From NCBI GenBank assembly GCA_964639945.1, contig CAZXHY010000001.1, forward strand, positions 9,527-73,526: DNA of 64,000 nt. The letters are read 5' to 3'. This DNA comes from an uncultured Gammaproteobacteria bacterium (lineage in GTDB: Bacteria; Patescibacteriota; Microgenomatia; UBA10105; UBA927). Made by a program: the position numbers and the translations under genes. Numbering within the stretch: position 1 is the first letter of the stretch; each line of letters opens with the position of its first letter. Below the pieces are notes generated by a model. The model did not search any database. It had not been told where the DNA came from and was given only the letters and a program-made list of their open reading frames with translations. Below, one piece after another: positions 5,421-63,445 of the stretch.

Positions 5421-5444
5421 TTTTTATGAGCGGGATAAGGGAAT
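5421..5444 (-). repeat. 24-nt direct repeat of the tRNA-Gly 3' end (mid T-loop through discriminator plus 9 nt)
   Basis: 'tttttatgagcgggataagggaat' is identical at 5421-5444 and 5622-5645. Degenerate similarity continues a few nt beyond. Confidence 0.8.
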
Positions 5445-5627: not shown

Positions 5628-5700
5628 TGAGCGGGATAAGGGAATCGAACCCTCTTCTCATCCTTGGGAAGGATGCATACTACCACTGTACTAATCCCGC
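5628..5700 (-). tRNA. tRNA-Gly (anticodon CCC)
   Basis: Reverse complement is GCGGGATTAGTACAGTGGTAGTATGCATCCTTCCCAAGGATGAGAAGAGGGTTCGATTCCCTTATCCCGCTCA. Cloverleaf foldable by hand. Anticodon loop is TTCCCAA and the T-loop is TTCGATT. Confidence 0.85.
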
Positions 5701-37000: not shown

Positions 37001-37064
37001 TGAACGTTCTCTAGTTCAAGTCTCCATATTTTGCTATAATTAGCTTTAGGCTTGTCAAAAGTAA

Positions 37065-37080
37065 ATATAGGGTCGGTAGC
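37065..37080 (+). repeat. Near-copy of the tRNA-Lys 5' end (gggtcggtagc plus 4 upstream nt)
   Basis: 'atatagggtcggtagc' at 37065-37080 versus 'atattgggtcggtagc' at 37167-37182 (15/16 identical). The latter includes the first 11 nt of tRNA-Lys. Confidence 0.7.
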
Positions 37081-37171
37081 CGCTATCACGAGCAGTGCGA
37101 GTGAGAAGCACTCTCGGGGTGTCAATGTGGGGAAAACTCTGTTATAGAAAGTCTGCAGAAAATTTAATATT

Positions 37172-37243
37172 GGGTCGGTAGCTCAATGGTAGAGCAGTAG
37201 CCTTTTAAGCTATTGGTTCAGGGTTCGAGCCCCTGCCGACTCA
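37172..37243 (+). tRNA. tRNA-Lys (anticodon TTT)
   Basis: GGGTCGGTAGCTCAATGGTAGAGCAGTAGCCTTTTAAGCTATTGGTTCAGGGTTCGAGCCCCTGCCGACTCA. Anticodon loop is CTTTTAA. Confidence 0.85.
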
Positions 37244-37247
37244 CTAG

Positions 37248-37284
37248 ATAAAATATGCCACCTTGTGTGGCATATTTTATATAT
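37248..37284 (+). terminator. AT-rich hairpin just downstream of tRNA-Lys
   Basis: Perfect 14-bp inverted repeat ataaaatatgccac (cttgt) gtggcatattttat. Confidence 0.5.
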
Positions 37285-37338
37285 TGAATTTGAGGGGCGA
37301 GAAGCGACGGTATGAAGATACCTAGTCCTCTTGTAGGA

Positions 37339-37355
37339 AGCCCCTGCCGACTCAC
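37339..37355 (+). repeat. 17-nt direct repeat of the tRNA-Lys 3' end
   Basis: 'agcccctgccgactcac' at 37228-37244 (T-loop 3' part to discriminator plus 1) is repeated exactly at 37339-37355. Confidence 0.8.
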
Positions 37356-37376: not shown

Positions 37377-37826
37377 CTATTGTTTAAACTTTATCTTAGA
37401 AGACACCGGAGTGAAGAAAGGTCTATGTTCCAGTGTGTATACAGCCTCTTTCCACACTGGAGTAGGTTTGACCGTTAAACGCTCATCTTCGATGTCTACA
37501 CCTTGACAATGAAGTCCCCATGCTAAATTTTTGGCATTTTCTTTTAACATATGCTCACCGGTATACCCGTCAAGTTTATTTAATGGTATTGTGACTCTTT
37601 CAGCGCCCGCTCTTAGGCATTTTTTGACGGCTCGAGCTACGCAAAGGCTGGCTATCGATCCCACTACGGTGACTGATGCACGAGGCATATGTGAAGGGAT
37701 GAGTGTGTCGACATCGTCATTTGTTCGACAGACAATTTGACCTCTACTTCTTAATTTATTCGCAAGAGGTAAGTGAACTGAAAACTCCCCCTCACCAACC
37801 ATAATTACTTTATGTTCTTGTTTCAT
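37377..37826 (-). CDS. Hypothetical protein (149 aa), alpha/beta-like, family not recognised
   Basis: ORF with protein-like composition. No SD at either candidate start. Located immediately downstream of the tRNA-Lys 3' repeat. Confidence 0.45.
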   Translation of the reverse strand: MKQEHKVIMVGEGEFSVHLPLANKLRSRGQIVCRTNDDVDTLIPSHMPRASVTVVGSIASLCVARAVKKCLRAGAERVTIPLNKLDGYTGEHMLKENAKNLAWGLHCQGVDIEDERLTVKPTPVWKEAVYTLEHRPFFTPVSSKIKFKQ

Positions 37827-38831: not shown

Positions 38832-39179
38832 AATCCTTTTACTCCTTACGTTGGTGAGATATGGTCTCTAAACTAAGCAGGCCCACAAAACGAGTAGATT
38901 GTGCTCGGCTTGTGCGCCTGCTCAGCGCGTAGGAGTGAGGATAAATGCTTCAAATGTAAATGTGCGAAATTGTACGTAAATTACAAAAAAAAGCGCAGCA
39001 ATGAGCGCTATCTGGTAACTTATGTAGGCTCAAAATATACCACAAAATGAGTGCTAAGTCAATGTTATAGGCTATAATTTTGAGGCTAAAAATGACGTTT
39101 AAGTAGCTTCTTGTTGCCTCAGGTAATCACGAGCGTGTATAGTATGAAAAAGCGCGTCTTCTGCCCATCTAGATGACGT

Positions 39180-39701
39180 ATGAGGCAAAGTAAAGAATTT
39201 TACCGTTCTATTCCACTCGACAGGGTGAATCAGCCCAATTCTACCGACCCTGTATTGTTTTATCCCAAAGAATTTAATGTATTTGATAACTTTACGGCGT
39301 ACCAAGTACTATACGATCACTACCTGTGGCCCACATCAGAGCACGCGTTTCAGGCTGCTGGGTTTAAAGGAATGTCAGAGGCTGTGGTCGAGCAGATAAA
39401 ACAGGCAAGGTCAGCGCATGATGCACAAAAGGTTATGCAGGCAAATAGCGCAAAACTGCGGCCCTATTGGGATGAAGAGCAGCGTGATACCATGAAGGAT
39501 ATTTTGCGCTGTAAGATAGAGCAGCATCCGTACGTACTCAAAAAGCTTTTGCAATCAGGAGATCGGGAGATCATCGAGGATTCATGGCGAGATACGGTGT
39601 GGGGATGGGGAGAGAACAAGGATGGTAAAAATCGATTGGGTGAGATCTGGATGGAGTTGCGTGAGGAGTATATAAAAAGGGAGGAGTTGCGTTTGTCTTA
39701 G
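39180..39701 (+). CDS. NADAR (YbiA/DUF1768) family protein
   Basis: 'FSNF..YQV.YDHYLWPTSEHAFQAAGFK' and 'RPYWDEEQRDTMKDILRCKIEQHP' match the NADAR/YbiA N-glycosidase fold signature. Confidence 0.75.
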   Translation: MRQSKEFYRSIPLDRVNQPNSTDPVLFYPKEFNVFDNFTAYQVLYDHYLWPTSEHAFQAAGFKGMSEAVVEQIKQARSAHDAQKVMQANSAKLRPYWDEEQRDTMKDILRCKIEQHPYVLKKLLQSGDREIIEDSWRDTVWGWGENKDGKNRLGEIWMELREEYIKREELRLS

Positions 39702-60118: not shown

Positions 60119-60136
60119 TGTACCCCCAGTCGGATT
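60119..60136 (-). repeat. 18-nt direct repeat of the tRNA-Glu 3' end
   Basis: 'tgtacccccagtcggatt' at 60119-60136 equals 60363-60380 (tRNA-Glu T-loop 3' part through discriminator plus 'AC'). Flanks show a further ~17 nt of degenerate similarity. Confidence 0.8.
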
Positions 60137-60363: not shown

Positions 60364-60438
60364 GTACCCCCAGTCGGATTCGAACCGGCGATTCTCTGGC
60401 TGAAAACCAGATGTCCTAGGCCGCTAGACGATGGGGGC
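60364..60438 (-). tRNA. tRNA-Glu (anticodon TTC)
   Basis: Reverse complement is GCCCCCATCGTCTAGCGGCCTAGGACATCTGGTTTTCAGCCAGAGAATCGCCGGTTCGAATCCGACTGGGGGTA. Anticodon loop is TTTTCAG. Closely resembles bacterial tRNA-Glu. It has a G1-U72 pair and one T-stem mismatch. Confidence 0.7.
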
Positions 60439-63254: not shown

Positions 63255-63445
63255 GTATCTTTTGAGAGTCTAAATCAAGAGTGACGGTGAGAGATCTCGC
63301 TCAATGATCCGTCCGGCAACCGAGGAAATGTGCCCACGGTGCCCCAACGAGTCCTGACTTATGTCGGGGGAGATTTGCCAGAATAAGGAAAAATTCTATC
63401 TGGCTTCCCGTGAGGAAGCTTATTTTTCTTCTTAGGGCGAGAAAG
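63255..63445 (+). promoter_or_regulatory. SAM-I (S-box) riboswitch with terminator expression platform, in the metK leader
   Basis: 'ATCAAGAGTGACGGTGAGAGATCTCGCTCAATGATCCGTCCGGCAACCGAGGAAATGTGCCCACGGTGCC' matches the S-box core consensus (AUCAAGAG.GG.GGAGGGA.UGGCCC.AUGA..CCCGGCAACC...GGUGCC). Followed by the terminator gcttcc-cgtga-ggaagc plus 'ttatttttctt' (63403-63430). Confidence 0.75.

Follow-up and report, generated by a model that had tools for sequence, protein, structure and literature searches.

How does a transfer RNA (tRNA) gene come to lie between duplicates of its own two ends? This question is raised by the tRNA-Lys gene in a 64-kb stretch of contig CAZXHY010000001.1, which was analysed as a whole and is called the window in what follows. 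The intact gene is preceded by an exact copy of its first 11 nucleotides (nt) and followed by an exact copy of its last 17 nt, and a short piece of other DNA separates the gene from each of them, the X module on the upstream side and the Y module on the downstream side (Table 1). By its gene content and its relatives, the window belongs to Patescibacteria (Candidate Phyla Radiation, CPR).

In the preliminary description of this DNA, made from the letters alone, the gene was read as sitting inside fragments of another, disrupted tRNA-Lys-like copy, and either the replacement of a resident tRNA by recombination with an incoming tRNA-bearing segment or a set of nested attachment (att) sites was offered as a possible cause. 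The reading that we favour, with a probability of roughly 0.55, is that the locus would be a nuclease-less derivative of a type of cassette that is common at tRNA-Lys genes of Patescibacteria, in which the gene of a small GIY-YIG nuclease runs into the intact tRNA and is flanked by pseudo-tRNA copies.

The comparisons were made with contigs and loci of the same species or of relatives, which are cited by L-numbers. Three of these (L001, L002, and L007) are contigs from three different samples, and L003 and L004 belong to the same species as the window. In addition, 81 tRNA-Lys loci of 8 kb each, mostly from Patescibacteria and restricted to one genome per species, were fetched by a pattern scan with a 32-nt tRNA core.

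Architecture of the tRNA-Lys locus

The last 17 nt of the gene, AGCCCCTGCCGACTCAC, which begin at the last three T-loop bases, are found at 37228-37244 and, after 94 nt, once more on the same strand with 17 of 17 positions identical; these are the only two matches in the 64 kb even when three mismatches are allowed (0.07 expected). At the other end, GGGTCGGTAGC is exact in the outer fragment and at 37172-37182, again on the same strand, with a weaker similarity reaching into the leader, so that the extended repeat (37057-37080 against 37159-37182) covers 24 nt with 88% identity. The preliminary description was accurate on these points, namely the 17-nt copy, the duplication at 37065-37080 (15/16 identical), the perfect 14-bp hairpin, and the neighbouring open reading frame (ORF) of 149 amino acids (aa). 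Its suggestion that the flanks be searched for pseudo-tRNAs led nowhere: ARAGORN and Rfam call the intact gene only, ARAGORN does not report the flanks as pseudo-tRNAs, and Rfam gave no match in X or Y (E ≤ 10 locally, E ≤ 1 window-wide). Because L001, L002, and L007, from three independent samples, are identical to the window over this region, the locus is not an assembly artefact.

The position of a promoter-like box gives an orientation to the outer fragments. In simple loci, the box TTTGCTATAAT is found 8-18 nt upstream of tRNA-Lys, and in loci with a 5' insertion it is found 106-370 nt upstream, always outside the outer fragment. The window has TGCTATAAT in the latter arrangement, and this box would be the native promoter of the gene; a generic promoter scan did not call it. 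We interpret the outer 5' fragment as the displaced native 5' end, which would have been kept beside the native promoter. For the outer 3' fragment, the best-supported reading is that it represents the native end, followed by a native-type AAAG trailer, since AAAG stands directly after the tRNA in L005 and L075, two relatives devoid of Y. A single outer RNA spanning both fragments was also considered and rejected, as X and Y are independent of one another in relatives.

Presence and absence of the modules in relatives

The relatives differ from one another in which of the modules they possess. The more distant but syntenic L005 has TTTGCTATAAT 9 nt before a plain tRNA-Lys, AAAG after it, and no flanking fragments, which is presumably the simple, ancestral state. 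The closest named relative, L029, a Candidatus Woesebacteria metagenome-assembled genome (MAG) whose flanking genes are 74-79% identical to those of the window, has the 5' fragment, X, and a tRNA-Lys identical to that of the window, and is without Y and the 3' fragment; there, TAGATAACATATG stands after the tRNA, and a further 22 nt lead to the NADAR gene. L030 shows the opposite arrangement, with Y and the 3' fragment, no X, and the promoter 8 nt from the tRNA. In L006, whose MOSC protein is 82% identical to that of the window, the order is 5' fragment, X, a second partial tRNA copy, a GIY-YIG ORF, and the intact tRNA. Finally, L056, a distant Gottesmanbacteria MAG, carries X at the same junction (GTAGC/CGCC), with an outer fragment, GGGCCTGTAGC, that matches its own tRNA. 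The modules sit in unrelated flanking genomic contexts, and each outer fragment equals the acceptor sequence of its own host.

Regarding the same species, L003 and L004 match the window exactly as far as tRNA-Lys position 49 and then change to another T-stem and acceptor 3' strand, with a different T-stem pair and a different acceptor base, and to unrelated downstream sequence. The variant tRNA-Lys of these two contigs (L003 1799-1937, and L004) is identical to the tRNA-Lys of L042, which is followed by an integrase gene.

Exchange between lineages is indicated by the comparison of the window with L030, in which the tRNA and the first 58 nt of Y are 94% identical, against 64-69% for the other longer shared stretches. 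This fits an incoming tRNA-bearing segment, as had been proposed at the outset, and the loci L074 and L113 described below, in which a nuclease gene and an intact tRNA are bracketed by pseudo-copies, speak for the same idea. The view that the gene lies inside the fragments of a disrupted copy stands in so far as the flanks appear to be displaced pieces of tRNA-Lys copies that mobile or incoming DNA has produced; the two may or may not derive from one single resident gene, as X and Y also occur separately.

The same pattern bears on the possibility that the repeats are parts of a functional precursor RNA, in which the acceptor 5' strand duplicated in the leader and the 3' strand duplicated in the trailer pair with each other or compete with the strands of the tRNA itself, and so control its maturation. 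RNAfold does pair the outer fragments in a 303-nt transcript, which is trivially expected from their sequences; moreover, the segment 37070-37133 is more conserved than the flanking genes, and the outer fragments covary with the tRNA ends of their hosts. However, the 5' side is present alone in L029 and L056, the 3' side alone in L030, L009, L017, and L084, and neither side in L005 and most other loci examined. In addition, the 3' fragment is set off from the tRNA by a strong terminator-like hairpin, and in the consensus fold the 5' fragment pairs locally with the start of X and not with distant sequence. Because close relatives are without one or both modules, the flanks are not a conserved processing signal. 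A helix of leader and trailer, kept in all relatives and free of insertions or deletions, had been named in the preliminary description as the finding that would speak against its interpretation; what the relatives show instead is an L005 with neither repeat, an L029 with the 5' one, an L030 with the 3' one, and an L006 with an additional cassette, and within the species L003 and L004 differ from the window. This presence/absence pattern largely refutes the precursor model, which we regard as very improbable.

GIY-YIG nuclease cassettes at tRNA-Lys genes

The nuclease ORF of L006 has counterparts at many tRNA-Lys genes. L006 and 12 of the 81 fetched loci contain an ORF of 78-105 aa with a GIY-YIG domain (PF01541, E about 1e-15) at most 600 nt from tRNA-Lys, and such an ORF occurs nowhere else in those loci. 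Four further members of the family, chosen by their long contigs only and blind to tRNAs, were all found directly upstream of a tRNA-Lys gene (UUU or CUU). The common order is the conserved promoter, a partial tRNA copy, the nuclease ORF, and the intact tRNA, and the TAG stop codon of the ORF falls within the tRNA (positions 8-10 or 19-21). A profile search returned at least 6,910 homologues in public data, which are labelled only as "GIY-YIG nuclease family protein" or "putative endonuclease" and, where named, come from Microgenomates-type Patescibacteria.

Many of the pseudo-copies share a particular construction, with tRNA positions 1-22, a 6-bp GC hairpin, and the anticodon loop CTTTTAAG. 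The hairpin, TCCGNC(3-4 nt)GNCGGA, replaces the 3' strand of the D-stem and the 5' strand of the anticodon stem, and its stem covaries, with ten distinct versions and compensatory changes. It is found in L006, L021, L024, L042, L074, L076, L079, L106, and L109, and was recognised by eye in L110 and L113; an identical version occurs beside tRNA-Lys(UUU) and tRNA-Lys(CUU).

The pseudo-copies also vary in number. In one species, an 84-nt pseudo-tRNA-Lys unit between the nuclease gene and the tRNA, composed of positions 1-22, the hairpin TCCGCCAACTGGCGGA, the stretch from the anticodon loop to the T-stem, and a 20-nt leader, is present once or twice, so that L107 differs from L106 and L108 by one unit (about 1471-1640), and a further copy is located upstream of the nuclease gene. 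L074 and L113 have a full bracket, with a 5' pseudo-copy, the nuclease, the intact tRNA, and a 3' pseudo-copy. In L074, the latter (about 76-150 nt after tRNA-Lys) ends with CAGGGTTCGAGCCCCTGCCGACTCAC, which is the 3' half of the window type and not that of L074 itself; at the level of sequence, this pseudo-copy shows an exchange of tRNA-Lys cassettes between lineages.

A further type of insertion was seen in L084 and L059, in both about 70 nt upstream of tRNA-Lys, and in L042. It consists of tRNA positions 1-7 (GGGCCTG or GGGTCGG), a 37-39-nt CCCGC...GCGGG hairpin, and an intact or pseudo tRNA, and its 7-nt duplication is below the 11-nt threshold of the survey of end copies presented later.

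A phage origin was tried and rejected, as neither the tRNA-Lys core nor the pseudo-tRNA hairpin pattern had a match in IMG/VR. Our literature search found no description of an association of tRNA-Lys with GIY-YIG genes in Patescibacteria, and a study of CPR homing endonucleases covers rRNA insertions only and never mentions tRNA. The wider tRNA-Lys-linked nuclease family thus appears to be undescribed.

The X module and its possible link to the cassettes

X is detected by nhmmer in the window species, L006, L029, and L056 only. Its conserved part contains GAGAAG (37103-37108), a 6-bp hairpin (37108-37122), and the D-loop-like TCAATGTGG (37122-37130), a motif that reads TCAAYG in the family. 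The fragment of positions 1-11 has the same junction with X in L006 and L056, and in L029 it comprises positions 1-10, with T for C at position 11. Taken together, the fragment and the first part of X (37070-37133, 64 nt) are 92% identical to L029 and 83% to L006, to be compared with 74-79% for the flanking coding DNA and 39-50% for the spacer. The X hairpin has two compensatory pairs among four sequences.

What connects X with the nuclease cassettes is its junction. The X of the window, L036, and L031 share the break after position 11 and a hairpin insertion whose last nucleotides are ...GGGGCA, and in the last two the nuclease gene follows this hairpin insertion. Moreover, the L036 nuclease gene has, at its 3' end, a 13-nt match to the X tail (z = 5). 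These resemblances suggest that X derives from a nuclease cassette.

Other identities of the two modules were rejected. As decayed nuclease ORFs, X and Y did not do better in a comparison of the profile with their translations than shuffles or the reverse strand; as known RNA families or ribozymes, they yielded only chance matches of miRNA type in Rfam. Regarding additional homologues of X, 241 million metagenome records of the Joint Genome Institute (JGI) gave 7 motif hits, all of them by chance in GC-rich coding DNA, and the X motif proper was not found there.

The Y module and the integrase alternative

Y opens with TAGA and a terminator-like hairpin at 37248-37280, the perfect 14-bp arms of which (37248-37261 and 37267-37280) are followed by a U-rich tract; then come GGGGCGAGAAG at 37294-37304 and two small predicted hairpins (37309-37322 and 37326-37338) that abut the 3' fragment. 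Its first 58 nt agree with the Y of L030 at 53 of 58 positions (z = 35), and the L030 hairpin has A-to-G at one stem position, by which a G-U pair is kept on the plus strand. A motif of GAGAAG(TTTAYCC) plus hairpin is common to the Y modules of the window, L009, L017, L030, and L084, and NGAGAAGTTTAYCC with a hairpin is at the same place in the relatives of Y (z = 8-22). Since downstream pseudo-copies of decreasing completeness exist in L079, L074, L113, and L088, Y may plausibly be what is left of such a copy; like X, it would come from a nuclease cassette. The centre of Y also resembles tRNA positions 31-59 weakly (p about 0.03), and the more specific proposal of a decayed copy of these positions was set aside as weakly supported.

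The boundaries of Y are what brings in the main rival, a tiny remnant of integrase-type att sites. On this account, Y and the 3' fragment would be the product of a tyrosine-integrase element that brought with it the last 17 nt of the gene when it entered the tRNA-Lys T-loop, and was later reduced to 94 nt, or of a miniature integrase-less element of the cis-mobilizable (CIME) kind, mobilised in trans, and the 5' fragment would be due to a second, unrelated event. The repeat spans the T-loop to the 3' end, as the identity block of T-loop-type tRNA integration sites typically does. Furthermore, 3' copies occur downstream only, the junction is tight at tRNA positions 54-58 in all Y cases, those at tRNA-Gly and tRNA-Glu included, and L029 and L005, which are without Y and the 3' fragment, have the form of an empty site. 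L042 has a PF00589 integrase 133 nt downstream of tRNA-Lys, and the replacement of the 3' part of the tRNA in L003 and L004 occurs at the level of strains. In L017, the inner copy differs from the outer by one base, with a G-U pair where the outer copy would give a Watson-Crick pair, as expected for an inner 3' end that derives from an element.

Several observations go against this account. No integrase was found between 37245 and 39170 with Pfam or PHROG; Y-type segments measure 63-227 nt and share motifs in all ten cases, which does not look like independent random deletions; what directly borders the outer repeat on its left is a hairpin, not an intact T-stem and T-loop core; host-specific changes are found together in the inner and outer copies; and the 5' fragment and the X family are left unexplained. 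We consider the integrase account unlikely. The proposal of nested integrase att sites is not supported: no integrase was seen within or beside the 94-nt segment, and the members of the Y family are small in each of the genomes examined.

Table 1. Features of the tRNA-Lys locus and of two further tRNA genes in the window, and loci of relatives in which a GIY-YIG ORF adjoins tRNA-Lys
Feature	Position or locus	Strand	Remarks
Extended -10 promoter-like box TGCTATAAT	37032..37040	+	Presumed native tRNA-Lys promoter; 131 nt upstream of functional gene
Outer 5' fragment GGGTCGGTAGC	37070..37080	+	tRNA-Lys positions 1-11, exact; repeat comparison
X module, 91 nt	37081..37171	+	Inserted after tRNA position 11; conserved part 37081-37133, poorly conserved tail to tRNA start
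Functional tRNA-Lys(UUU), CCA not encoded	37172..37244	+	ARAGORN; Rfam RF00005, 72.1 bits
Y module, 94 nt	37245..37338	+	TAGA, terminator-like hairpin, U-rich tract, GGGGCGAGAAG, two small hairpins
Outer 3' fragment AGCCCCTGCCGACTCAC	37339..37355	+	tRNA-Lys positions 57-73, exact, then AAAG; repeat comparison
Segment without counterpart in L029	37258..39169		Rest of Y, 3' fragment, ORF149, overlapping ORFs of 144 and 191 aa, 340 nt non-coding
tRNA-Gly(CCC)	5629-5700	-	3'-end copy, 24 nt, exact, at 5421-5444, 184 nt downstream
tRNA-Glu(UUC)	60364-60438	-	3'-end copy, 18 nt, exact, at 60119-60136, 227 nt downstream
GIY-YIG ORF adjoining tRNA-Lys	L006, L021, L024, L031, L036, L045, L059, L063, L068, L074, L076, L079, L084		PF01541 matches
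GIY-YIG ORF adjoining tRNA-Lys	L106-L113		

Copies of tRNA ends at other genes

To see how general such copies are, the last 15 nt and the first 11 nt of 107 tRNAs from 84 sources were sought within 600 nt of each gene. Copies of the 3' end were found 9 times downstream and never upstream, and copies of the 5' end 6 times upstream and never downstream. This polarity is as expected if DNA enters the gene and only those events survive that rebuild an intact inner gene. The statement in the preliminary description that a 5' copy is unusual, a simple integration leaving the 3' repeat only, was half right: such a copy recurs in 6 of 107 tRNAs, and in this lineage it is tied to GIY-YIG cassettes.

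Three of the four tRNA genes of the window, those for Lys, Gly, and Glu, have a 3'-end copy beyond a Y-type segment, and tRNA-Asp has none. The Gly copy is made of 17 nt from the T-loop and 7 nt of the trailer, and its spacing is 363 nt in all contigs of the species, which rules out a strain polymorphism of this segment. The segment between the gene and the copy begins with the GAGCGAAGCTC hairpin and contains TTGCGGG, a match to the 5' start of the tRNA. The Glu copy lies after a classical terminator and a highly structured segment, and ATCCTGAGC..GTCGAAGGA of this segment recurs in the Lys Y modules that L009 and L084 carry (z about 4.5); a similar 3'-end copy was noticed at the tRNA-Glu of L076. 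The tRNA-Glu of the window, read by eye, has a C-A mismatch in the T-stem (GCCGG/CCGAC) and a G1-U72 pair, and its Rfam score of 52 bits is the lowest of the four tRNAs; the downstream copy has the same CCGAC. An overall similarity among X and the Y segments of Lys, Gly, and Glu within the window was looked for and not found at first, and short blocks only were recognised later.

Such recurrence could also be explained if X and Y were small non-autonomous mobile elements at tRNA ends, which would repeat 11 or 17 nt of the host, much like a target-site duplication, and might be mobilised by the tRNA-linked GIY-YIG nucleases or by some unknown enzyme. Homologous Y modules (L009 and L084, L017 and L030, the window and L030) and X modules (the window and L056) do occur in unrelated contexts, the flanking repeats always equal the tRNA end of the host despite differing acceptor stems and T-stems, and Y-type segments accompany most tRNAs of the window, with those of Glu and Gly sharing short blocks with the Lys Y family at the z value given above. 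On the other hand, the ends of X and of Y are not paired as inverted repeats, so that terminal inverted repeats are missing, the 64 kb hold no second copy of either module, and the JGI records yielded no X motif. In addition, we know of no transposase mechanism that leads to duplications of 11 or 17 bp ending exactly at tRNA boundaries. This explanation appears distinctly unlikely to us.

DNA downstream of the locus and neighbouring genes

The genes neighbouring the tRNA-Lys locus belong to UPF0102, PMT_2, MOSC, and NADAR. Downstream of the 3' fragment, the 149-aa ORF (ORF149, 37377-37826, minus strand) has exact matches in contigs of the same species only, and neither it nor the other ORFs between 37245 and 39170 have a Pfam or PHROG match; a single-sequence AlphaFold model of ORF149 gave a low-confidence alpha/beta fold, with a predicted local distance difference test (pLDDT) score of 55. 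Both TAGATAAAATATG, directly after the tRNA (37245-37257), and TAGATGACGTATG, directly before the NADAR start (39170-39182), resemble the TAGATAACATATG of L029, and the 1.9 kb between them, absent in L029, may have been inserted, with this repeat at the two ends. MAFFT suggested that 39040-39182 might be a second, decayed tRNA-Lys locus, a reading that was rejected because the local alignment score was below the mean of shuffles. Elsewhere in the window, the plus strand at 63269-63379 has a near-threshold match to the S-adenosylmethionine (SAM) riboswitch (RF00162, 39.1 bits against a gathering threshold of 44.4, E = 2.6e-5, full model length).

A proposed history of the locus

If the window locus is a nuclease-less derivative of a tRNA-Lys cassette, its history may be reconstructed as follows. 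A complete cassette would comprise a stand-alone GIY-YIG gene of about 85 aa, fused to the 5' end of an intact tRNA so that its stop codon is inside the tRNA, with pseudo-tRNA copies flanking the nuclease gene. Spread would be of the homing type, by nuclease cleavage and recombinational repair. First, the nuclease would break the DNA at a tRNA-Lys gene; second, repair or recombination would use as its anchor the tRNA core, a sequence almost unchanged among these lineages; and third, the flanking DNA would be transferred along. The cassette would thus enter through the highly conserved tRNA body and supply its own tRNA sequence, by which an intact gene would be regenerated on the inner side and the displaced native ends left outside, the 5' end beside the native promoter and the 3' end beside the native trailer. 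Partial duplication around an insert, with one intact copy kept, is the arrangement observed in the window and, together with the nuclease, in L074 and L113.

The window copy would either have lost the nuclease gene or never had it. What is left would be the native positions 1-11, X (a D-arm insertion with a decayed tail), the tRNA, Y as a remnant of a pseudo-copy, and the last 17 nt of the native gene; inserted DNA would have brought the inner gene, or its ends at the least. At present, transcription would start after TGCTATAAT, giving a leader of about 125 nt, RNase P would cut at 37171/37172, and the hairpin at 37248-37280, formerly of the pseudo-copy, would now serve as the terminator of the tRNA, which would leave the 3' fragment beyond it inert.

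There are also observations that do not sit easily with the cassette reading. No GIY-YIG sequence was found in the 64-kb window by tblastn, and X and Y hold no trace of a nuclease at the protein level, the 13-nt DNA match being the sole link. The two modules are separate in other genomes, so that both flanks need not have come from a single cassette. The junction of Y is always in the T-loop, a position that T-loop-specific integrases would give as well. Furthermore, the inner and outer 3' copies are concordant in each genome, though the hosts of Y differ in T-stem and acceptor, and this concordance fits a target-duplicating insertion better than simple co-conversion. Finally, the conservation of 37070-37133 above the neighbouring genes hints at a present function, which a pure scar would not explain.

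Comparison with known systems

The closest established precedent is SegB, a GIY-YIG endonuclease encoded in phage tRNA clusters that cleaves within the tRNA gene region (PMC2330249, PMC13096335). It is passed on together with the tRNA DNA around it, causes local segmental duplication among tRNA genes, and is statistically over-represented beside tRNAs (PMC2330249, PMC13096335). Like SegB, the GIY-YIG gene in the relatives of the window adjoins a tRNA gene, and the pseudo-tRNA units vary in copy number. The differences are that the cassettes are found on cellular chromosomes of Patescibacteria and not in phages, viral contigs having given no matches; that the family is tied to tRNA-Lys, its ORF runs into the tRNA, and its pseudo-copies have the conserved covarying hairpin; and that the window itself has no nuclease gene. 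Moreover, the protein consists of the catalytic domain only, of about 85 aa, unlike the Seg proteins, which also carry a separate DNA-binding domain.

The genomic islands that tyrosine integrases insert into tRNA genes, and their integrase-less derivatives (CIMEs), which show accretion of att sites, have a direct repeat from the T-loop to the end of the gene, the intact gene proximal, the displaced fragment distal, and empty sites in relatives. The window has such a repeat, a proximal intact gene, and empty-site variation, and differs in the 94 nt between its repeats, the lack of an integrase, the additional 5' fragment, and the hairpin before the outer repeat. Free-standing homing endonuclease genes of fungal mitochondria, such as that at Allomyces atp6, reportedly bring along a substitute for part of the host gene, whose displaced end persists as a pseudogene, and some such elements carry GIY-YIG ORFs. 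As in the window, the invaded gene is restored by the copy of the insertion and a displaced terminal fragment is left; the targets, however, are protein-coding and organellar, and usually only the 3' end is duplicated. In the tyrT operon of Escherichia coli, 178-bp repeats each end with the 3'-terminal 19 nt of tRNA-Tyr. Here too, copies of a tRNA 3' end lie shortly downstream in the same orientation, but as tandem repeats of one unit that includes CCA, with no 5' fragment and no linkage to a nuclease.

Implications

The window locus itself is a scar, and the more novel item is the minimal GIY-YIG genes on tRNA-Lys with their hairpin pseudo-tRNAs. A broader proposal, which we put forward tentatively and as one that is rather doubtful, is that a large undescribed class of tRNA-Lys-specific selfish cassettes exists in Patescibacteria. 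These may have a minimal nuclease core of 85 aa that is co-transcribed with the tRNA and translationally runs into it, as well as pseudo-tRNA modules in which a conserved hairpin takes the place of the 5' strand of the anticodon stem. Nuclease-less derivatives of the X and Y kind may still be moving, duplicating 11 nt of the host at the 5' side and 17 nt at the 3' side, at tRNA-Gly and tRNA-Glu too. If this is true, the window holds three such derivatives.

For the annotation of these genomes, short exact copies of tRNA ends near tRNA genes of Patescibacteria are unreliable markers of integrase islands. tRNA genes are classic landing sites of integrase-borne islands, and the locus and its relatives would represent a second way, besides those islands, to exploit tRNA genes in ultra-small bacteria. 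Minimal GIY-YIG cassettes would invade the body of the gene, bring a replacement tRNA, and leave stubs of the 5' and 3' ends. The conserved tRNA core would serve as a portable region of homology, by which DNA may pass from one lineage to another even where their longer shared stretches are otherwise only 64-69% identical. If the nuclease does home on tRNA-Lys, it would be a very small endonuclease with a natural specificity for tRNA genes, and a cellular counterpart of phage SegB.

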